Shown: positions 1 to 33,563 of the stretch, one piece after another
How the letters are laid out: each line of letters starts with the position of its first letter
Numbering within the stretch: the stretch's first letter is position 1
IMG/VR virus record: IMGVR_UViG_2541047945_000006
Source of the DNA: a virus
Lineage: Duplodnaviria; Heunggongvirae; Uroviricota; Caudoviricetes
Length of the DNA stretch: 33,563 nucleotides
Strand: one strand, 5' to 3'
The notes under the pieces: model-generated
The model's input: only the letters and a program-made list of their open reading frames with translations
Database searches by the model: none
What the model was told of the DNA's origin: nothing
Program-made: the position numbers and the translations under genes

Positions 1-1074
1 TCATTTGTCGATTTCAATTTTGTCCCATTCCCGTCCACGGCTGTCCCTATACCGCGCCGCCATTGAGTCTGATTTATGCCCGAGAAGACGTTGAGCAAAC
101 TTATCGCCAATCTGGTTCCGGTATAGCCTCGCTGACAGGCTACGCAGTTCATGGAATGTTGGCGGGTTTCCATCAAATGAGAGTCCAGATGCATTTCTCG
201 CCTTTGTAAAATACTTTGATACTGTTTTCGGGGAAAGCGGATCGTGATGCTTTGATGCGATTATAGTTTCACTGCTGCTGGCCTCCCTGCATTTCTGTAG
301 TGTATCAGCCAATGAGATATTGAGCGCGTCAATCGTTAGCGTTAGCGGAATGGCGAGTTTAGCCCCTGTTTTACTCTGTTCAATGTGAAGATGGTTGTCG
401 TTTATGTCTGACCATTTCATTCTGCACAAATCGCCGACTCTCTGCCCTGTAACGACGGCCAAATCCATCGCCAGCCTTAGCCAGATAGGGAGAGGTTCGG
501 CTGCATGGTAAATCTCGACATACTCATTAGCTGTCAGCCTTGAGCGCCTTACTTCTGACTTTGCTGTACGGGTTGCTGTTACCGGATTCGTTGCCACATG
601 CCCATCGGCTATTGCTTCACGAAAAACGTCAACAAGGGTTGACCTGATTAATTTTGCGGAAGCTGCTTTACCTTCTGCTACGTAGGTGTTTAGCATTGCT
701 GCCACTTCTTTCGTTGATATGTCAGTGAGCGGTTTGTCCGGCAATTTTCTTCGGATTGCCCTGATTTTGCTGGCGTAGTCGAGTAGAGTTTTCGGCCTGA
801 TCCCCCTTTCGGTGAGGATTCTTTCATATCGGTCAAGCCACACATGAAGAGTGATTGCGTCACCGCCTTTAATTCTGTCTATCAGTGATTTGCGTCCGCT
901 GTCTGAGAGTAACTCAATATTGGCCTGTATTGCTTCAGTAATTGCTATCCTCCTGTCTCTGCCTAATCCGAACTCTTTACCCGTCCTTGGGTCCCTGTAG
1001 CAGTAATATCCATTGTTTCTTATATAAAGGTTAGGGGGTAAATCCCGGCGCTCATGACTTCGCCTTCTTCCCAT
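1..1074 (-). CDS. int: Tyrosine site-specific integrase (lambda Int-like)
   Basis: 357-aa ORF, ATG at 1072-1074; closely matches lambda Int as I recall it (MGRRRSHERRDLPPNLYIRNNGYYCYRDP... HELRSLSARLY ... REWDKIEI). Stop codon is at window positions 1-3, so the att site lies outside the window. Confidence 0.93.
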   Translation of the reverse strand: MGRRRSHERRDLPPNLYIRNNGYYCYRDPRTGKEFGLGRDRRIAITEAIQANIELLSDSGRKSLIDRIKGGDAITLHVWLDRYERILTERGIRPKTLLDYASKIRAIRRKLPDKPLTDISTKEVAAMLNTYVAEGKAASAKLIRSTLVDVFREAIADGHVATNPVTATRTAKSEVRRSRLTANEYVEIYHAAEPLPIWLRLAMDLAVVTGQRVGDLCRMKWSDINDNHLHIEQSKTGAKLAIPLTLTIDALNISLADTLQKCREASSSETIIASKHHDPLSPKTVSKYFTKARNASGLSFDGNPPTFHELRSLSARLYRNQIGDKFAQRLLGHKSDSMAARYRDSRGREWDKIEIDK

Positions 1075-5732: not shown

Positions 5733-5761
5733 GCTAAAAATAAAGGCCGACTATGCGGCCT
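5733..5761 (-). terminator. Putative intrinsic terminator overlapping the stop of the 207-aa gene
   Basis: AGGCCG-CATAGT-CGGCCT hairpin followed by UUUAUUUUU on the minus strand. Confidence 0.45.
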
Positions 5762-6374
5762 CGGAAGGAAGTCCAATCATCTTATTCAAATCTTCTACCC
5801 GTAAAGCAGGAAGTGCTGTACTTGCTTTATCTGCTTCTTTTGGTAGCAATTCTTTGCTTTCAGGCCAAACTTCAATAAGTCGCTTAACTGTTGTGACTGA
5901 GTTCAAAGCAGCCCATACATTTGATTCGATATCCTTTTTCTTGGCTTCAAGTTTTTGTTGCAATGCGCAGATTTCATCAAACCTTTTTGTTATTTCGTGC
6001 TCTGCGTCAAACATGCATTTATCTTTGGTCGGAGTAGGGAGCAATATATCTTCGCCGTTGCCGTCTTTCCCATATGAATGCCATCCAACCCTTCTGCCAG
6101 ATACAGTCAGATAAATTGAAGTAGAACGAACATCGTATGAGTAAAATGAACATCCCAGTTTTTCAAGTTCTTCACTTATAGCTACTAACTTGGAATATAA
6201 ATGATCCACTTCCTCAGTTTTCTTTTTACCGCCAAACGCAATAACTCTGGCGTCAAGTGCAAGCTGGTTCTTTAACTTTGTTACTTCTTCAAGTTCAGTG
6301 AAAACCCCAGACTTAATTAAAGCGTTACGAGCGATTTCCTCTTTCATTCTCGTAGTTAAGCGGATTGATGACAT
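5751..6374 (-). CDS. Hypothetical protein (207 aa) in the pL operon between N/sieB and cIII
   Basis: ATG at 6372-6374 with GAGAGGAA SD; charged, coiled-coil-like N-terminus; no family recognised. Confidence 0.65.
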   Translation of the reverse strand: MSSIRLTTRMKEEIARNALIKSGVFTELEEVTKLKNQLALDARVIAFGGKKKTEEVDHLYSKLVAISEELEKLGCSFYSYDVRSTSIYLTVSGRRVGWHSYGKDGNGEDILLPTPTKDKCMFDAEHEITKRFDEICALQQKLEAKKKDIESNVWAALNSVTTVKRLIEVWPESKELLPKEADKASTALPALRVEDLNKMIGLPSEAA

Positions 6375-6385
6375 ATTAATTCCTC

Positions 6386-6589
6386 TCAAATAAGTGGTTT
6401 GCTGCCTAATTTCATTTTCTGGCGACCAACACAAGTCACCCCCATTTCACTGCGTGGCTTGCGGTAGTAAAGATTGTGCCTGTCTTTTAACCACATCAGG
6501 CTCGGTGGTTCTCGTGTACCCCTACAGCGAGAAATCGGATAAACTCTATTCACCCCTACAGAGAGCAAAAGAGAAACGCCGATGAACAA
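6386..6589 (-). other. ORF whose C-terminus resembles the lambda N C-terminus (possible N gene remnant)
   Basis: 67-aa track ORF ending ...YYRKPRSEMGVTCVGRQKMKLGSKPLI, which resembles the lambda N end (...WYSKPGERGITCSGRQKIKGKSIPLI) as I recall it; it lacks an arginine-rich motif. Confidence 0.4.
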
Positions 6590-7179: not shown

Positions 7180-7452
7180 TCATCTTGCTGTCAGTTGTTT
7201 TGATTTCCGATAGCCTGCCGCGTAAAGAGCTACATTTGGAAGACAAGTTGAGCCTTCATATTTTCTGGTCAACGTTGTCAGTGTTATTACTTCTGCTCTC
7301 ATTGCTGGTTTGCGCTTGCATTGCAAGACCACTCGTGAAGGGGTTGGCCTGTGTAGCTTGTCGGAGCTGATCGCCTCCTGACTTTGCAGATTTGCACGAC
7401 GAGCTCTACGGCGAGAAGCTGCGGTGCCTTTAAATTCTGTTTTTCTGGACAT
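7180..7452 (-). CDS. N: N-type transcription antiterminator with arginine-rich motif
   Basis: 90-aa ORF from ATG 7450-7452 (GGGAGGAA SD); N-terminal arginine-rich motif KGTAASRRRARRANLQ resembles phi21/P22 N; sits immediately downstream of a boxA/boxB nutL site. Confidence 0.7.
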   Translation of the reverse strand: MSRKTEFKGTAASRRRARRANLQSQEAISSDKLHRPTPSRVVLQCKRKPAMRAEVITLTTLTRKYEGSTCLPNVALYAAGYRKSKQLTAR

Positions 7453-7550
7453 AGATTCCTCCCGAATAAACTTTGGCGATGCAATCTCGAAGCCCCTCCT
7501 GAGACGGTTGCTTCGGCATTGCATCCCACAGCTTATGTGGTTGGGTGATC

Positions 7551-7904: not shown

Positions 7905-8951
7905 TCACTCTGGTTCGCTGGGGAATATATTTATCAATTGTCCTGTTGAAATGTGTCCATTTTCTACAACCTCTAGGTATGAAATTTCAACAGTTGATTC
8001 TTTGGCTACAGCATTCAAAAACTCAAGAAGCTCATCAGTAGATGTTATGTCGGCTGAGGTTTTTATGGTGAAAGATTCACCATTTGAAACCCTTGTGACG
8101 TCAATATTTATGTCCTGATTTGTTTCTCCCGAGCGACGAACGCCCGTGACATAAAAGTTATCTCTTCTAGTTTCCTTTTTTCGATCAATTGATTGCCTTT
8201 GGTTTAAGGTATTCAACTGTTCTCTATTTACCACTCTCTGACCAATTGTTACCTTCTCAACTGACGAGTCTTGAGCAAGCTTTTTAAGCAACTTGCTTTT
8301 ACCATCCTCGCCGTGAGCCAGAACCTCTCTGCTAATGTTTGTTTGACCGCTAATCAACAACTTGAGCACATTGTCTTGTGCTTCGTTTACCGCTTTGGTG
8401 CTTTTTTCCACCAATTGCACCTGAGAATCTTGGTCATGTCGCTGTGTTTCGTAGTACTCATTGATCCACTTATAGCCTACCGTGCTGGCAGCTAAGACGA
8501 TAGCGGCGACGGCGCATAGTGCTTGCCTTCCTGTCATTTTGCCTATCGCTTGAGTTAACACTGTCACCACTCCGTTTACAATCGGATCTGAGTCACCATC
8601 CGCTTGGCTTGAGCCTTCGCTTATTCGGTAGACAATATCCAGCAAACCTTTCTCTGCATCTTTTAGCTTCTGCCGATTATGAGTGCTGTGACTGACTACC
8701 GTAAATGCTTTTTGTATTTCATGCGTAAGCTCTGCCATACCAAAAAGCATTGACGCAGTCAATGAAGAATTATATCTATTTGGATCGCCTTTTACATTAA
8801 TATTGATCTTTGGCCATCCACTGAAAACTACGCTAGGGAATGTGAAGTCGCTTGAGTCGATATCCTTCCTTCCGAGCATTTCTGTTACAAAAGATACAAA
8901 GTCGTCTTCTGACTTGATAACATATTGCGCAGGTTGATCAATCGCTGACAT
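7905..8951 (-). CDS. Uncharacterised 348-aa protein with one predicted transmembrane helix (rex-slot cargo)
   Basis: ATG at 8949-8951 with AAGGA SD, 76 nt downstream of the cI stop on the same strand; hydrophobic segment LCAVAAIVLAASTVGY mid-protein; no Walker A or other motif I recognise; unlike RexA/RexB. Confidence 0.8.
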   Translation of the reverse strand: MSAIDQPAQYVIKSEDDFVSFVTEMLGRKDIDSSDFTFPSVVFSGWPKININVKGDPNRYNSSLTASMLFGMAELTHEIQKAFTVVSHSTHNRQKLKDAEKGLLDIVYRISEGSSQADGDSDPIVNGVVTVLTQAIGKMTGRQALCAVAAIVLAASTVGYKWINEYYETQRHDQDSQVQLVEKSTKAVNEAQDNVLKLLISGQTNISREVLAHGEDGKSKLLKKLAQDSSVEKVTIGQRVVNREQLNTLNQRQSIDRKKETRRDNFYVTGVRRSGETNQDINIDVTRVSNGESFTIKTSADITSTDELLEFLNAVAKESTVEISYLEVVENGHISTGQLINIFPSEPE

Positions 8952-9027: not shown

Positions 9028-9732
9028 TCACGAATTTTTCAGCCACTCCCTTGCCTCGATGTCATCCAGATGACGAGATTGCTTCAGAATACCAGCCACA
9101 TACTCCACCTTTGCTACTTGATGATAAGGCAACGTTATTGGCCTATGGTCCTGGTTGATGCTTGTAAACTGGTATTCTCCGTCTCTGTCATAGCCAAGAA
9201 CTTTGATCATGTTGTGTCCTTCAACGGTTCTGACAAACACCTCATCACCCGGGAATACTTTGGTGTTAGGCTCAATGAGTACATATTCTCCTGATTTTAT
9301 TCTAGGCCACATGCTGTCTCCTTTCACACGAAGACCAAAGGCATCTGGATCATCGCTATAAATCTTGAGCCACCCATCGCGCTCTTCGGTCATCTCGATG
9401 GCACCATCAACACCAAGAATTGCCTCACCAACCACGCGCACTAACCCTTTTCTTACCTGACCGACAAAAGTTAAAGAATCTGAGCATGATGCAATTGGTG
9501 TTACATCATGTACCAAATCAAGCCACCCATTAGGTAACCCAAGTGCGGCTTCGAATTTTCTTGCTAGTTTATCCCCTATGTTTCGAGTGCTTTTTTCACC
9601 GGAGACTTGCGTGAGTTGAGAAGGGCTAACTCCAAGCTTATCGGCAAAGCTTGCATTAGTGTTACCCGCGATTTTTTTATGCTCATCTAGCAAAAACGCC
9701 AGATTCGATTTGCGAATATCTTTGTTTTCCAT
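9028..9732 (-). CDS. cI: CI-type prophage repressor (HTH plus LexA-like S24 autopeptidase domain)
   Basis: 234-aa ORF; N-terminal HTH region and C-terminal S24 domain with the GDSMWP motif and a lysine further downstream; divergent from cro across an operator region. Confidence 0.9.
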   Translation of the reverse strand: MENKDIRKSNLAFLLDEHKKIAGNTNASFADKLGVSPSQLTQVSGEKSTRNIGDKLARKFEAALGLPNGWLDLVHDVTPIASCSDSLTFVGQVRKGLVRVVGEAILGVDGAIEMTEERDGWLKIYSDDPDAFGLRVKGDSMWPRIKSGEYVLIEPNTKVFPGDEVFVRTVEGHNMIKVLGYDRDGEYQFTSINQDHRPITLPYHQVAKVEYVAGILKQSRHLDDIEAREWLKNS

Positions 9733-13183: not shown

Positions 13184-13604
13184 AATTCGATCCCCAGCAC
13201 ATCAGCAAAACGCTATTCACGCAGTACAGCAAATCCTTCCAGACCCAACCAAACCAATCGTAGTAACCATTCAGGAACGCAACCGCAGCTTAGACCAAAA
13301 TCGGAAGCTTTGGGCTTGCCTTGGTGACGTTTCGCGTCAGGTTGAATGGCATGGTCGATGGCTGGATGCAGAAAGCTGGAAGTGCGTTTTTACAGCAGCA
13401 TTAAAGCAGCAGGACGTTGTTCCTAACCTTGCCGGGAATGGCTTTGTGGTAATAGGCCAGTCAACCAGCAGGATGCGTGTAAGCGAATTTGCGGAGCTAT
13501 TAGAGCTTATACAGGCATTTGGTACAGAGCATGGCGTTAAGTGGTCAGACGAAGCGCGACTGGCTCTGGAGTGGAAAGCGCGATGGGGAGATCGGGCTGC
13601 ATGA
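13164..13604 (+). CDS. ninB: NinB (Orf-family recombination mediator)
   Basis: 146-aa protein essentially matching lambda NinB as I recall it (MKKLTFEIRSPAHQQNAIHAVQQILPDPTKPIVVTIQERNRSLDQNRKLWACLGD...). Confidence 0.9.
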   Translation: MKKLTFEIRSPAHQQNAIHAVQQILPDPTKPIVVTIQERNRSLDQNRKLWACLGDVSRQVEWHGRWLDAESWKCVFTAALKQQDVVPNLAGNGFVVIGQSTSRMRVSEFAELLELIQAFGTEHGVKWSDEARLALEWKARWGDRAA

Positions 13605-14128
13605 CTATCAAATCAAATACGCCAGCACACGACAAGGACTGCTGGCAAACGCCGCTTTGGCTTTTTGATGCACTGGATATTGAGTTTGGATTCTGGCTGG
13701 ATTCGGCAGCGAGCGACAAAAACGCTCTGTGCGCTCACTGGCTAACTGAGGCTGATGACGCGCTAAATTCTGAGTGGATAAGCCACGGTGCAATCTGGAA
13801 TAACCCACCGTACAGCAATATCAGGCCGTGGGTGGAAAAAGCCGCTGAGCAGTGCATACAACAGCGACAGACGGTAGTTATGCTTGTGCCAGGGGATATG
13901 TCTGTCGGATGGTTCAGCAAGGCTCTGGAGAGTGTCGACGAAGTTCGCATTATCACTGATGGACGGATTAATTTTATCGAACCATCGACAGGGCTGGAGA
14001 AGAAGGGAAACAGTAAAGGCTCAATGCTGCTGATTTGGCGACCGTTCATCAGTCCTCGACGGATGTTTACTACCGTATCCAAAGCGGCATTGATGGCGAT
14101 CGGGCAGGGCGTCAGGAGGGCGGCATGA
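13601..14128 (+). CDS. DNA N6-adenine methyltransferase (phage Dam-like)
   Basis: NPPY catalytic motif (IWNNPPYSN); internal ATG at 13601 overlaps the ninB stop (ATGA), preferred over the track's upstream start. Confidence 0.82.
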
Positions 14129-17361: not shown

Positions 17362-17607
17362 ATGAAATCAATGGACAAAATCTCAACTGGCATTGCCTAC
17401 GGAACATCTGCTGGTAGTGCGGGATACTGGTTTTTGCAGTGGTTGGATCAGGTCAGTCCGTCACAGTGGGCTGCGATTGGAGTGCTTGGAAGCCTTGTGT
17501 TGGGTTTTCTCACTTATCTGACAAATCTGTATTTCAAAATCAGAGAAGACAGACGAAAGGCTGCGAGTGAACCGCCCCGGGTTTCCTGGAGAGTATTTTA
17601 TCTGTGA
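17362..17607 (+). CDS. S: Phage-21-type pinholin S21 with IS-altered C-terminus
   Basis: Dual-start MKSMDKI and SAR-type TM region match S21 from memory; the last codons (ARGE-stop in intact S21) are replaced by a read-through into the IS end ([13 protein letters not shown]). Confidence 0.8.
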
Positions 17608-17609
17608 AC

Positions 17610-18500
17610 TCAGGCTGCCAGATCATCGTTTCCGATGGAAGCATAATAAGCTTTTTCTGCTTCTGCCGGAGGAGTATGGCCCAGCCTTTCCAGCAATCGT
17701 CGATTGTTATACCAGTCCACCCACGTGAGTGTGGCCAGTTCCACTTCTGCACGGTTTTTCCAGCTCTTACGGTGTATTACCTCCGCTTTGTAAAGACCAT
17801 TGATGCTCTCCGCCATCGCGTTGTCATACGAGTCGCCTGTACTTCCTGTTGATGCCAGTAATCCGGCTTCCTTAAGCCGCTGTGTGTAGGCCAGCGATAC
17901 ATACTGAGAACCTTTATCACTGTGATGGACCGTGCCGGACGGTCGACGGGCCCATAACGCCTGCTCCAGTGCATCCAGCACGAATGTCGTCTCCATGGAC
18001 GATGAGACCCGCCACCCCACAATGTATCCGGCAAACACATCAATGATGAACGCCACATAGACGAAGCCCTGCCATGTGCTGACGTAAGTAAAATCAGCCA
18101 CCCACAGCTGGTCAGGTCGTTCTGCCACGAACTGACGGTTTACGCGGTCGCCTGCGGCAACGGCTTTCCGGCTGATGGTCGTACGGACCTTTTTACCCCG
18201 GAGAACACCGGCAAGTCCCATAACCGCCATGAGACGTGCCACAGTGCATCTGGCCACTCTGATACCTTCCCGTAACAACTGACGCCAGACTTTACGCACA
18301 CCGTATACCTTGTGATTTTCATCGTATACGCGCTGTATCTCTTTCTTCAGCCAGTCATCGCGCTGCGCACGGGCACTGCGTTTATCCGGATGATGTCGCT
18401 GTTGCTGACAGTGGTAATACGTTGACGGGGCAATATGCAGTTCGCTGCATAGCGGTCCGACCCCGTACTGCTCACGCAGCTTATCCAGCAGTGGCATCAT
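17610..18500 (-). CDS. IS3-family transposase OrfB (DDE integrase-like catalytic domain)
   Basis: 296-aa ORF of typical IS3-family OrfB character; overlaps orfA as expected for -1 frameshift fusion. Confidence 0.85.
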
Positions 18501-18823
18501 TTTTTCCAGAGGCGGTCGAACTCCGCCTTCGCAAAATAAGCGGAAGCCTGGCGAAGGATATCGTTACTGCGGCGCAGTTCACGATTTTCACGCTCCAGCT
18601 CTTTCAGACGCTGACGTTCAGCGGTGGTGAGCCCTCCATCACCGCCCCCGGTATCCCGCTCATGCTGGCGAACCCAGACACGCAGAGTCTCCGGCGTACA
18701 GCCAATCTTTGGAGCAATGGAACAAATTGTCGCCCATTGTGAGTCATATTCGCCCTGACTTTCCAGAACCATACGGACTGCCCGTTGACGGACTTCAGGG
18801 GAAAAACGAGTATTTTTAGTCAT
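18497..18823 (-). CDS. IS3-family transposase OrfA (HTH plus leucine zipper)
   Basis: 108-aa ORF ([57 protein letters not shown]...) that I recall as IS629/IS1203-type OrfA. Confidence 0.85.
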
Positions 18824-18889
18824 CCTGTTTACCTCTTTCTCAGGAAGTTTAGTCTCCAGGATTCCCGGGGCGGTTCAGAGAGGTGAATA

Positions 18890-19387
18890 ATGCCTCCATC
18901 ATTACGAAAAGCCGTTGCTGCTGCTATTGGTGGCGGGGCTATTGCCATAGCATCTGTGTTAATCACTGGCCCAAGTGGTAACGATGGTCTGGAAGGTGTG
19001 AGACATAATCCTTACAAAGACATAGTTGGTGTATGGACTGTATGTTACGGGCATACAGGAAAAGACATCATTCCCGGTAAAACGTATACCGAAGCAGAAT
19101 GCAAAGCCCTCCTGAATAAAGACCTTGCCACGGTCGCCAGACAAATTAACCCGTACATCAAAGTCGATATACCGGAAACAACGCGCGGCGCTCTTTACTC
19201 GTTCGTTTACAACGTGGGTGCAGGCAATTTCAGAACATCGACGCTTCTTCGCAAAATCAACCAGGGTGATATCAAAGGTGCGTGTGACCAGCTACGTCGC
19301 TGGACATACGCTGGCGGTAAGCAATGGAAAGGGCTGATGACCCGTCGTGATATTGAGCGTGAAGTCTGTTTGTGGGGGCAGCAATGA
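18890..19387 (+). CDS. R: SAR endolysin (phage 21 R21-like lysozyme)
   Basis: N-terminal Gly/Ala-rich signal-anchor-release domain ([18 protein letters not shown]) followed by a lysozyme domain; begins 10 nt after the IS end. Confidence 0.85.
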
Positions 19388-28589: not shown

Positions 28590-30008
28590 ATGCCAATTCA
28601 GCAACTTCCGCTTATGAAAGGTGTCGGCAAAGACTTTCGAAACGCCGACTATATCGACTATCTGCCAGTGAATATGTTGGCTACACCCAAAGAAATCCTC
28701 AACAGCAGCGGATATCTTCGCTCATTCCCGGGCATTGCCAAACGCTCTGATGTAAACGGCGTATCGCGCGGCGTCGAGTACAACATGGCGCAGAATGCTG
28801 TTTATCGTGTGTGTGGCGGCAAGCTCTACAAAGGCGAAAGCGAAGTCGGTGATGTCGCCGGAAGTGGTCGTGTATCAATGGCGCATGGTCGGACATCACA
28901 GGCGGTAGGCGTTAATGGTCGACTGGTCGAGTATCGCTATGATGGCACGGTTAAAACAGTCTCAAACTGGCCTACAGACAGCGGATTCACTCAGTATGAG
29001 TTAGGTTCAGTCCGCGATATTACGCGCTTACGTGGGCGTTATGCGTGGTCAAAAGACGGAACTGATTCATGGTTTATCACTGACCTTGAAGACGAATCAC
29101 ATCCTGACCGTTACAGCGCACAATATCGTGCCGAGTCTCAGCCTGACGGCATCATCGGCATCGGAACATGGCGAGACTTCATCGTCTGCTTTGGTTCATC
29201 GACGATTGAATATTTCTCCCTGACGGGGGCAACCACCGTTGGTGCCGCTTTGTATGTCGCACAGCCATCGCTGATGGTGCAGAAAGGCATTGCCGGAACT
29301 TACTGCAAAACGCCGTTTGCTGATTCGTATGCGTTTATCAGCAATCCGGCAACGGGTGCGCCGTCTGTATACATCATCGGATCAGGTCAGGTATCACCAA
29401 TCGCCAGCGCGAGCATTGAGAAAATCCTCCGCTCCTACACTGCTGATGAACTGGCTGATGGCGTGATGGAATCGTTGCGGTTTGATGCTCATGAATTGCT
29501 GATTATCCACCTTCCGCGCCATGTTCTTGTTTACGACGCATCTTCAAGCGCCAATGGTCCGCAATGGTGTGTACTGAAAACAGGCTTGTATGACGATGTG
29601 TACCGCGCTATCGACTTCATTTACGAAGGAAATCAGATAACGTGCGGCGATAAGCTGGAATCGGTGACCGGGAAATTGCAGTTCGATATCAGCAGCCAGT
29701 ACGACAAGCAGCAGGAACACCTGCTGTTTACTCCGTTGTTCAAAGCGGATAACGCCAGAGTGTTTGACTTTGAGGTTGAATCGTCAACTGGCGTTGCGCA
29801 GTACGCCGACCGCCTTTTTCTCTCTGCAACCACTGACGGCATCAATTACGGGCGTGAGCAGATGATTGAGCAGAATGAACCGTTCGTTTACGACAAACGC
29901 GTTTTGTGGAAGCGCGTCGGGCGAATAAGGAAAAATGTCGGCTTCAAATTGCGCGTTATCACTAAGTCACCTGTCACTCTGTCAGGCTGCCAGATAAGGA
30001 TCGAGTAA
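28590..30008 (+). CDS. Tail accessory factor (P22 gp10-like)
   Basis: 472-aa ORF closely matching P22 gp10 from memory ([46 protein letters not shown]...). Confidence 0.85.
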
Positions 30009-30961
30009 TGGCTGATTCGAATCTCAATGAGCCGGTAATCATTCAGGCTACACGACTCGACACATCAGTCCTTCCACGCAATATCTTCTCGCAGTCATAT
30101 CTGCTGTACGTTATCGCACAGGGTGCTGATGTTGGTAACGTGGCTAACAAGGCCAACGAAGCAGGGAAGGGGGCTTATGATGCACAGGTGAAGAATGATG
30201 AGCAGGATGTCACCCTTGCAGACCATGAATCAAGAATTGCTGCTGCTGAAGCAATTCTCGTCAATCATGAACATAGAATCGCAGCAGCGGAAAGCACTCT
30301 TGCAGATCATGAAACAAGGATTACGGCTGCCGAAACAGAGCTGGCTGATCACGAGACGCGAATTGCTGCCAATGAATCTGAGTTAGCAAACCATGATGCG
30401 CGAATAACTCAGAATACAACCGATATCAACGCACTTGATACCAGGCTCACAGCGGCAGAGGGAAGTATTTCGACGCTACAAAGCACAGTTGGTGATCACT
30501 CAACAAGAATATCTGCGCTTGAGTATGCCACCACGCGCAAGAAATCAGAGGTTGTTTACTCAGGAGTATCGGTAACCATTCCAACAGCGCCGACCAACCT
30601 TGTTAGCCTGCTGAAAACGCTCACGCCGTCATCCGGGACGTTGGCACCATTCTTCGATACTGATAACAACAAGATGGTTGTTTTCAACGAGAACAAAACC
30701 CTGTTCTTCAAGCTGTCGATTGTCGGGACGTGGCCCAGCGGAACCGCAAACAGGTCAATGCAGCTAACCTTTTCCGGATCTGTTCCTGACACACTGGTAA
30801 GCAGTCGCAACTCGGCGACAACAACCGATAACATCCTGTTAGCTACGTTCTTCAGCGTGGATAAAGACGGCTTTCTTGCCACAAATGGCAGCACGTTAAC
30901 CATTCAGTCAAATGGTGCGGCGTTTACTGCCACAACCATCAAGATAATCGCGGAGCAGTGA
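30008..30961 (+). CDS. Tail needle (P22 gp26 / Sf6 gp9-like) with C-terminal knob domain
   Basis: N-terminus matches gp26 ([34 protein letters not shown]); a central coiled coil of five 14-aa repeats ([11 protein letters not shown]..); about 140-aa Ser/Thr-rich C-terminal domain. Confidence 0.8.
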
Positions 30962-31416
30962 TGATTCAGTTCAAACCAACGCGAAACATCGACCTGATAG
31001 AAGCCGTAGGAAATCACCCTGACATTATCGCCGGGAGCAACAACGGTGATGGATACGACTACAAACCTGATTGCCGTTACTTTGAGGTGAATGTGCACGG
31101 GCAGTTCGGCGGCATTGTTTACTATCAGGAGATTCAGCCGCTGACATTCGATTGCCACGCCATGTACCTGCCAGAGGTTCGCGGATTCAGCAAGGAAATC
31201 GGTCTGGCGTTCTGGCGATACATTCTGACTAACACCACCGTTCAGTGCGTCACATCGTTCGCTGCGCGCAAATTCCGCCACGGTCAGATGTACTGCGCAA
31301 TGATTGGCCTTAAGCGTGTAGGAACCATCAAGAAATACTTCAAAGGCGTGGATGACGTGACGTTTTACAGCGCAACACGCGAAGAACTAATCGACTTCCT
31401 GAATCACGGGAGATAG
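30958..31416 (+). CDS. Head assembly protein, gp14-like (assigned by position)
   Basis: 152-aa ORF between the needle and gp7-like genes, translationally coupled; assignment rests on synteny with P22. Confidence 0.55.
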
Positions 31417-32121: not shown

Positions 32122-33329
32122 ATGGCTACGTGGCAACAGGGTATTAATTCTGGTGGTTTTCTGGCTGGCATTGGTGCGCAAAACGAGAATGCGCCAAAGG
32201 CAAGCGACATTAACGCAACGCTTGGTCTGATCCGCGAAAACAATGAACTGGCTCGCTCAGGTGCAAATAACGTTGGTCTGACCGCGTTACGTGGTCTGGC
32301 TGGAGTTGCTGATATTTACAATCAGGAACAGCAACAGAAAGCGATTAGTGCGTTCAATAAGGTTCACGCTGATGCATGGGCTTCTGGTGATCCATCGGGA
32401 CTATTTAAGTTTGCCAAGGAAAATCCAGCGTTTGTTGCACAGGCACAACAGGCGTTTTCCGGTCTTAATGAGCAGCAACGTAACGATATGGGCGATTTAG
32501 CCATGAGGGCTAACGTCGCTCTTTCTCAGGGACCGGAAGCCTACAGTAAATTCATTACTGACAACAAGGACAGGTTAAATCGCGTTGGTGCTAATGCTGA
32601 CTGGATGATTCAGACAGGTATCCAGAATCCAGAGCAGCTATCACACATGCTGACTACTATGACGCTAGGGGCTGTTGGTCCGGATAAAATGCTGGATTAT
32701 CAGGATAAGATGGTTGGTCGCCAACTTGAGAAAGGGCGATTGGATGAAAGCATCCGTCAGGCTGACATGGAGAACGCGAGAGGATGGGCAAATATCCAAA
32801 ACGCTCAACTAGACAGGGCTCAGCGGGCACAAATGCATAATGATAACGTAGCCCTGAAGTTGCAGGAATTAGGGATGAAACAACAGGAAAGCGGAAAGAT
32901 TGACCCAAAACTTGTTCGAGATCTGAATAGTGATATTAATGGGTTCTCAAAGAATTATTCTGCAATGCGCAGTGCTTCTGACAACCTACAAGCCCTTGGG
33001 AAGCGCAACACTCCAGCCGCGCAGTTGGGAATGATTTTCAACTATATGAAATCGCTGGATCCGCAATCTGTGGTACGCGAAGGTGAGCAAGTGCAGGTAA
33101 AACGCACTGATGGAATATTCGGCACACTTGGTAACTATGTTAGCCAATTATCTAACGGCAAGATGCTGAATAATGAGCAAGTCCAAGACTTAATCAACAC
33201 CTCAAAACTGATGGCAAATACTGAAGGCGAAAAGTTTAACCAGCAAATGGATGATTATCTTTCAACTTATGGAGATTCTCTCCCCAGCGGACTAACTAAG
33301 CAATTGCAATCCAGAAAAGCCAAGCTGTA
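32122..33329 (+). pseudogene. DNA ejection protein gene (P22 gp20-like) truncated by IS insertion
   Basis: gp20-like ORF in the syntenic position; the reading frame runs into the IS end at 33330, giving the same foreign tail [12 protein letters not shown] seen on the holin; P22 gp20 is about 470 aa versus about 403 native residues here. Confidence 0.75.
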
Positions 33330-33563
33330 TGAACCGCCCCGGGTTTCCTGGAGAGTATTTTATCTGTGAACTCAGGCTGCCAGATCATCGTTTCCGATGG
33401 AAGCATAATAAGCTTTTTCTGCTTCTGCCGGAGGAGTATGGCCCAGCCTTTCCAGCAATCGTCGATTGTTATACCAGTCCACCCACGTGAGTGTGGCCAG
33501 TTCCACTTCTGCACGGTTTTTCCAGCTCTTACGGTGTATTACCTCCGCTTTGTAAAGACCATT
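33330..33563 (-). mobile_element. Second IS629-like copy, same orientation as the first, cut by the window edge
   Basis: Sequence 33330-33563 matches 17568-17801 along its whole length by eye, starting with the same terminal repeat TGAACCGCCCCGGGTTTCCTGGAGA. Confidence 0.85.
33372..33563 (-). CDS. IS3-family transposase OrfB, 3' portion only (partial at window edge)
   Basis: Placed by offset identity with orfB of the first IS copy (17610-18500). Confidence 0.7.
   Translation of the reverse strand, partial: NGLYKAEVIHRKSWKNRAEVELATLTWVDWYNNRRLLERLGHTPPAEAEKAYYASIGNDDLAA

Follow-up and report, generated by a model that had tools for sequence, protein, structure and literature searches.

What kind of protein is encoded by a reading frame that begins like the tail needle of phage P22, runs on through tandem repeats and ends in a domain rich in serine, threonine and asparagine, and might its tip, or the number of its repeats, set host range or the triggering of DNA ejection? 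Here, we propose that the product of 30008-30961 in the window (the whole 33,563-nucleotide stretch of viral DNA analysed) is the tail needle of a P22-like prophage, of the HS1 allele, forming a predicted trimeric fibre with a plug, a shaft and a knob (probability about 0.95). This architecture, the expanded coiled coil included, is already in the literature and the gene is an ordinary one that adds nothing new, since previous work covers the cloning of the HS1-type needle, a crystal structure of its knob and tests of that knob in chimeric phages. Of wider use is the length of the shaft, for which we describe many natural variants in heptad steps, with their recombination junctions, beyond the previously reported lengths of 11 and 16 heptads. 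This natural ladder is a ready series for testing needle length against the timing of DNA ejection in podoviruses, a question left by an earlier study (Leavitt et al. 2013, PMC3741392).

The needle gene and its prophage

The window is a P22-like prophage of the Lederbergvirus type (Table 1). Its left part holds, in order, an integrase, an ERF recombinase, SieB, N and a cI-like repressor; its middle holds O-like and DnaB-like replication genes, nin genes and Q; and its right part holds lysis genes, the small and large terminase, a P22-type portal, scaffold and coat, followed by gp4 to gp20. Within this last module the order is gp4, gp10, needle, gp14, gp7, gp20, and the Pfam matches that flank the needle (P22_Tail-4, Phage_stabilise, DUF2824, P22_gp7 and Inj_translocase, in that order) place the gene after gp10 and before gp14, gp7 and gp20, which is the position of the P22 gp26-type needle family. 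The order gp10, needle, gp14-like is common to Sf6, HS1 and Escherichia coli strain Combat2C1. In the list of open reading frames, the needle gene is the sole long one at the locus. It is tightly coupled to both neighbours, its ATG sharing letters with the stop of the gp10 gene before it (472 aa; TAATG) and its stop with the ATG of the gp14-like gene behind it (TGATG), an arrangement typical of phage virion modules. Two minus-strand frames, at 30556-30903 and 30904-31281, were taken as shadows of the needle reading frame.

Table 1. Features of the window and of the needle, with the evidence on which each is placed
Feature	Position (nt)	Residues (aa)	Strand	Evidence or remark
Integrase	1-1074			Left end of the prophage map
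IS629/IS1203-like element, 1,310 bp	17568-18877			Inside the last codons of the S21-like pinholin gene (holin 3' end)
gp10 tail hub gene, partner of the needle (predicted to be plugged by it)	28590-30008		+	PF11134 at 3.6e-301
Tail needle gene, 317 aa and stop; HS1-type ortholog of P22 gene 26 and Sf6 gene 9	30008-30961	1-317	+	ORF, HS1 identity, PHROG matches
N-terminal domain, homologous to the hub-plugging gp26 helical hairpin	30008-30214	1-69	+	gp26 structure matches
Five tandem 14-aa (42-bp) repeats, two heptads each	30215-30424	70-139	+	Unit table, shuffles, TRF
Repeat unit 1		70-83		
Repeat unit 2		84-97		
Repeat unit 3		98-111		
Repeat unit 4		112-125		
Repeat unit 5		126-139		
Shaft after the repeats; heptad register unbroken, 14-aa repeat unrecognisable	30425-30523		+	Heptad layout
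Sf6-type tail needle knob, 145 aa	30524-30958	173-317	+	PF16532; PDB 4K6B, 3RWN
gp14-like gene (DUF2824), directly 3' of the needle, start coupled to the needle stop	30961-31416		+	PF11039 at 3e-53
Second IS629/IS1203-like copy	From 33330; window ends within the element			Interrupts the gp20 ejection-protein gene

Because of the IS629-like insertions at the 3' end of the holin gene and in gene 20, the prophage appears defective, and for that reason infectious virions containing this copy of the needle may never form. The junction between gp20 and the insertion element was absent from the complete E. coli genomes of the collection searched, and a PADLOC search of the unannotated open reading frames of the early region returned no match.

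The gene itself is far from rare. Of 5,426 complete E. coli genomes, 164 have it at its full length of 954 bp and 943 match at least part of it; in one E. coli strain, where the gene is 99.4% identical and lies in the same order, NCBI names it "tail needle knob protein". The isolated phages vB_EcoP-720R6, JEP4 and Gally have the needle at 96-98% protein identity, as do at least 70 IMG/VR contigs at 95-100%.

Two PHROG families, "tail needle knob" (1e-134) and "tail needle protein" (9e-59), identify the product, and its two ends can be assigned separately. At the N-terminus, residues 1-128 (to about 130) match the P22 gp26 structures 2POH, 3C9I, 4ZKP and 8EAP with E-values of 1e-41 to 1e-47 (phmmer against the sequences of solved structures), and over residues 1-69 the identity is 55/69 to P22 gp26, 64/69 to Sf6 gp9 and 65/69 to HK620 gp26, so that the description of the first 70 or so residues as gp26-like in the initial annotation was correct. 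The conserved hub-binding domain of gp26-type needles (about 60 residues) is thus present, together with the motif N63-x-x-Q66-D67 (30194-30208), whose N63, Q66 and D67 are invariant in the needle alignment. In P22 gp26 the NxxQD motif coordinates Ca2+ in the polar core (PMC13580157).

The C-terminal domain has no counterpart in these gp26 needles. Serine, threonine and asparagine make up 35% of residues 173-317, against 23% of the remaining protein, and a forced alignment finds only 22/145 identical residues in P22 gp26 and 19/145 in HK620 gp26. A Ser/Thr/Asn-rich domain of about 140 residues with no counterpart in the 233-residue P22 needle had been noted from the sequence at the outset, and this is borne out. 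Although P22 gp26 (2POH, 3C9I) shares the homologous plug domain, the NxxQD Ca2+ motif, heptad pairs of the DHExRI type and the gene position, it ends not in a jelly-roll knob but in a helical domain unrelated to it. In the window, by contrast, residues 165-317 differ at only one to three positions from two solved knobs, that of HS1 (4K6B, E = 1e-89) and that of Sf6 gene 9 (3RWN, E = 9e-89), and the Pfam family PF16532 (Phage_tail_NK) is matched over profile positions 1-175 of 175 (E = 4.1e-107, 355.9 bits against a cut-off of 27). The knob is identical to that of HS1 at 144/145 positions and to that of Sf6 at 143/145. The sole difference from HS1, V219D, is a polymorphism found in 19 of 208 relatives.

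The HS1 knob, solved at 1.1 Å, is a trimer with a TNF-like jelly-roll fold in which three glutamates are bound (PMC3741392). All nine published ligand residues are kept in the window: the six that contact L-glutamate (E181, K235, S283, D285, L290 and K312, in HS1 numbering) and the distal triad S266-R267-N268 of the phosphate site, which has the same numbering as in HS1 (lists in PMC3741392). Given the 144/145 identity to 4K6B, the last 145 residues would fold as a TNF-like homotrimeric jelly-roll, with three L-glutamates at the subunit interfaces.

As a whole, the protein is closest to the needle of the HS1 prophage (E. coli HS, EcHS_A0316, a 954-bp gene), which is also 317 residues long and 96% identical (305/317). 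The two share the same five 14-residue repeats, the 16-heptad shaft, the ligand-binding residues and the position between gp10 and gp14, and are separated by twelve substitutions: V8E, T40A, Q54K, R62K, E78A, T83I, I85V, E100D, D107A, A138T, D141N and V219D. The prophages themselves differ in integration site, lysis genes and IS insertions. The published HS1 needle is 98% identical to Sf6 in its N-terminal domain and 99% in its knob, and its helical core has 16 heptads with a predicted length of about 210 Å, as against 11 heptads in Sf6 and P22 (Leavitt et al. 2013, PMC3741392). Sf6 gp9 has the same architecture as the window needle in 282 residues. The window needle has 35 more shaft residues, equal to two 14-residue units and one heptad, and in contrast to the two end domains the shafts are only about 45-50% identical.

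A shaft built of heptad pairs

The middle of the protein consists of five tandem repeats, as the initial annotation had it, and these are statistically plain: residue identity at a lag of 14 is 0.61, compared with 0.11 +/- 0.04 in shuffled sequences, none of 10,000 of which reached that value. Units 1-4 are 57-79% identical to each other at the protein level. Unit 5 is more distant, at 36-50% identity to these four, and residues 140-153 form a faint, barely recognisable sixth. The repeats had also been described as visible at the DNA level, with a period of 42 bp. The period is genuine and old, and its units are diverged, with 48-76% nucleotide identity and with TRF reporting only 3.0 copies at 68% matches (30211-30334).

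Each unit is a pair of heptads of the form L-x-x-H-x-x-x-I-x-x-A-x-x-x, in which position a is Leu or Ile and position d alternates between His and Ala or Asn. It is this alternation of His and Ala at the core d position that makes the period 14 residues. Position a is aliphatic (Leu, Ile or Val) at 15 consecutive heptads without a stutter (residues 70-168), and six His layers lie in the core, at H73, H87, H101, H115, H129 and H164. The continuous heptad-repeat shaft expected of the gp26-type family is thus present in the sequence, a trimeric state being predicted. The needle also has the dimensions of the HS1-type allele, namely 317 residues with 109 between the landmarks NDEQD and EYATTRKK, a spacing found as well in HS1 and in 76 related loci that were parsed, compared with 74 in Sf6. 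In sum, the initial annotation was right to see a tail needle whose coiled coil is lengthened and whose C-terminal domain is of the knob type, and the protein is an HS1-type needle of 16 heptads with a PF16532 knob.

A ladder of shaft lengths

Copy number was then compared among relatives, with the shaft measured as the distance from NDEQD to EYATTRKK in the best 120 clusters of a protein collection that contains roughly 2,400 homologues (Table 2). Among these clusters, spacings range from 46 to 137 residues and follow 74+7n in every class with more than one cluster; the off-register spacings of 77, 90, 101 and 108 (protein lengths of 285, 298, 309 and 316 residues) are represented by single clusters each. 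Needle lengths among relatives accordingly run from 254 to 345 residues, or about 7 to 20 heptads, which modestly extends the published "11 versus 16 heptads". Repeat number is thus variable among relatives, and of the two observations that the initial annotation had set against its own proposal, an invariant repeat number and a C-terminal domain aligning fully with a known knob, only the second was made: the domain aligns end to end with a solved knob.

Table 2. Spacing between the NDEQD and EYATTRKK landmarks in the best 120 clusters of the protein collection
Spacing (aa)	Clusters	Heptads relative to Sf6
46	11	-4
60	2	-2
74	24	0
81	9	+1
88	2	+2
95	31	+3
102	1	+4
109	25	+5
123	1	+7
130	1	+8
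137	1	+9

How might these lengths have arisen? Read unit by unit, the shafts reveal several different junctions. The 303-residue class has at least two origins, one in a fusion of unit 1 with unit 2 and another in a fusion of unit 4 with unit 5; in the 289-residue form units 1 and 3 are fused, and in the 345-residue form units 1 and 2 are duplicated. In the Sf6 lineage, the forms of 254, 310 and 338 residues correspond to the deletion, duplication and triplication of one 28-residue block. Two loci, L103 (345 residues) and L106 (338 residues), contain perfect 84-bp duplications, and since the blocks are identical at the nucleotide level these duplications are recent. From such junctions we infer that unequal recombination or slippage between units is the likely source of the length variants, adding or removing whole heptad pairs with the register intact. 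Short stretches of DNA identity between the units, around the DHE(T/S)RI codons, would account for gain and loss in register and, in turn, for the ladder of natural shaft lengths. Repetition thus makes shaft length evolvable in register.

The window allele is itself length-stable and not especially unstable, because its units share only short exact DNA matches, around the same codons, amid an identity of 48-76%. All 77 parsed IMG/VR copies at 95-100% identity are 317 residues long, two of them identical to the window protein, and a search of IMG/VR for the 303-residue variant returned the 317- and 282-residue forms only.

What needle length and needle tip might do

In light of the window product being an HS1-type needle, what might be the role of its parts? 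By analogy with published work on P22, Sf6 and HS1, three copies would form a trimer whose N-terminal helical hairpins (residues 1 to about 60) insert into the hexameric gp10 hub, sealing the portal channel and retaining the packaged DNA; in the cryoEM structure of the Sf6 tail, the needle N-terminal hairpins form a quasi-sixfold plug in the hexameric hub (PMC9728967). The trimeric coiled coil of about 16 heptads (residues 63 to about 172) would be the shaft, projecting beyond the tailspikes and exceeding the Sf6 and P22 shafts by about five heptads, or some 50 Å. The knob or needle would then probably be the first part to reach the outer membrane during infection, and expulsion of the needle from the hub would be required before the ejection proteins and DNA can leave.

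As for the meaning of shaft length, we lean slightly towards its variation being a neutral by-product, in which a coiled coil built of repeats tolerates the gain and loss of units in register. Consistent with this, only in-register variants recur, the off-register lengths being confined to single clusters, and isolated, viable phages have needles of 11, 12 or 16 heptads. Two lengths dominate, with 3,620 members in the 282-residue class and 1,430 in the 317-residue class in the largest clusters of the protein collection. Against neutrality, Bhardwaj and colleagues are said to have found in 2009 that the stability of the needle rises with the length of its coiled coil, and such a dependence would make length non-neutral.

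A second option is that the shaft is an adaptive ruler, the number of heptads being selected for timely contact with the outer membrane in relation to the length of the tailspike and the thickness of the O-antigen or capsule. We consider this unlikely, for all that several observations agree with it: natural lengths form a ladder of heptad quanta from 254 to 345 residues, independent deletions through different junctions have arrived at the same 303-residue length, and the variants at both extremes of length occur within virion modules that look complete, the 254-residue form in two different capsid and terminase backgrounds. The relation to tailspikes was surveyed in 160 IMG/VR loci with 10-kb flanks (77 with a 317-residue and 77 with a 282-residue needle), in which tailspikes were located through their conserved head-binding domain and their receptor-binding parts clustered. 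The median tailspike has 690 residues beside the long needle and 653 beside the short one, a slight difference that is not significant (Mann-Whitney p = 0.06) and is uncorrected for relatedness. Five tailspike clusters, moreover, hold both needle length classes, and the rarer length classes are mostly single clusters, both of which speak against a ruler. More doubtful still is its fuller version, an evolvable ruler in which recombination among 42-bp units would generate shafts of 7 to 20 heptads and selection would then fit their reach to the length of the tailspike or to how deep a layer of O-antigen or capsule the host has, thereby timing ejection.

It is very improbable that the knob, the repeat number or both determine receptor binding or host range, as the initial annotation had suggested for the distal domain and the repeat number. 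In favour of it are the position expected of the knob at the very tip of the tail, a fold in common with the receptor-binding knobs of adenovirus and PRD1 (PMC3741392), the dependence of Sf6 on the secondary receptors OmpA and OmpC (PMC9728967) and a Shigella-specific function of the knob that the authors of the 2013 study left open (PMC3741392). Against it, P22 given the knob of Sf6 or of HS1 still infects Salmonella normally, its host specificity unchanged by the swap, and among P22-like phages the knobs are less than 5% different (PMC3741392). The likeness to adenovirus and PRD1 extends to a TNF-like trimeric jelly-roll that ends a trimeric shaft (PMC3741392). Those knobs bind receptors, whereas the needle knob is not known to, and no sequence similarity was found between them and the window needle.

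The tailspike survey also argues against a host-range role, in agreement with the published chimeras. In the 130 loci with a tailspike, the receptor-binding parts fall into 85 clusters, and each needle class (317 and 282 residues) is found with some 40 tailspike types or more, while in most sampled loci the needle is at least 97% identical to the query within its length class. With so many tailspike clusters for each needle class, similar needles serve phages with very many O-antigen specificities.

What stands of the earlier suggestion is the part that concerned the tip and ejection. The needle tip of the window, by the same analogy, would modulate the speed of delivery and would not choose the host. 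In the published chimeras, in which either the needle tip of P22 was replaced by the HS1 knob or most of its needle by Sf6 sequence, phage with the HS1 knob released K+ at 40-70% of the wild-type rate, a result that points to a role in the kinetics of delivery (PMC3741392).

Length variation and spread of the knob-type needles

Length variants of the needle that stay in register occur naturally, as three sizes (345, 338 and 254 aa) were found in other E. coli prophages, each within a complete-looking virion module (see table). One of the prophages with the 254-aa needle (L104) also has an HNH_3 endonuclease gene between its gp4 and gp10 genes.

Other variants fall off register. Four protein clusters, P0052 (285 aa), P0050 (298 aa), P0055 (309 aa) and P0008 (316 aa), one for each length, have shafts that differ from those of other needles by a non-multiple of seven; possible explanations are errors in sequencing, gene decay or stutter-tolerant coiled coils.

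In a 2013 study, knob-type needles were seen only in P22-like phages of Escherichia and Shigella (Leavitt et al. 2013; PMC3741392). We find a wider spread, with knob-type needles carrying a gp26-like N-terminus in phages or prophages of Salmonella, Citrobacter, Klebsiella, Serratia, Aeromonas and Shewanella, based on four loci (L004, Salmonella phage S9-5; L008, Aeromonas phage 4_4512; L011 and L012, Citrobacter), two search matches (H28 and H33) and protein clusters P0064-P0071 and P0116. The E. coli O157:H7 86-24 lineage has a needle-knob pseudogene (L003), truncated at its N-terminal end, in a small P22-like remnant adjoining intS, in agreement with the remnant mentioned previously (PMC3741392). 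This pseudogene is common to many O157:H7 genomes and covers bases 507-954 of the needle gene in the window at 93.8% identity.

IS copies and the state of the prophage

The window carries an IS629/IS1203-like element of the IS3 family, whose terminal inverted repeats start TGAACCGCCCCGGG. The insertion point falls within the 3'-terminal codons of an S21-like pinholin ORF, the final 12 residues of which are encoded by the IS. The element lies just upstream of a SAR-endolysin-like gene, and probably disturbs lysis-gene expression. An end of a second copy interrupts the gp20 ejection-protein ORF, and the resulting gp20::IS junction was found in none of the complete E. coli genomes of our collection. 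The window stops within this gp20-cutting copy, and together these features suggest a contig break at a repeat and a defective prophage.

Genes of the early and nin regions

Between the N gene and the cI-like repressor gene, in the place where lambda has rexAB, lies an ORF of 348 aa, which is a candidate lysogen-expressed moron. It had no match in Pfam or PADLOC, its sole match being PHROG 6191, of unknown function. The early region also encodes a protein with an Nmad5 (nucleotide-modification-associated) domain, and the nin region a Dam-type N6-adenine methyltransferase.

Coordinates of the features (in the window, or in the relative's own locus where an L-number is given)
Feature	Coordinates	Strand	Remarks
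345-aa needle, repeat region	L103 10204-10411		repeat units 1-2 duplicated, perfect 84-bp copy
338-aa needle, repeat region	L106 10293-10568		84-bp block, 3.3 copies at 98% matches
254-aa needle	L104 and L105 10001-10765		matching deletion
HNH_3 endonuclease	L104 8120-8635
Needle-knob pseudogene	L003 2912-3448
Nmad5 domain protein	5754-6434	-
N	7183-7524
348-aa ORF	7908-8951	-
cI-like repressor	9031-9732
Dam-type methyltransferase	13541-14125	+
S21-like pinholin ORF	17362-17607
IS629/IS1203-like element	17568-18877	-	1,310 bp
orfB of IS	17610-18500
OrfA of IS	18497-18823
SAR-endolysin-like gene	18890-19387
gp20 ORF	32122-33369
Second IS copy, end	33330-33563		234 nt, 100% identical to 17568-17801
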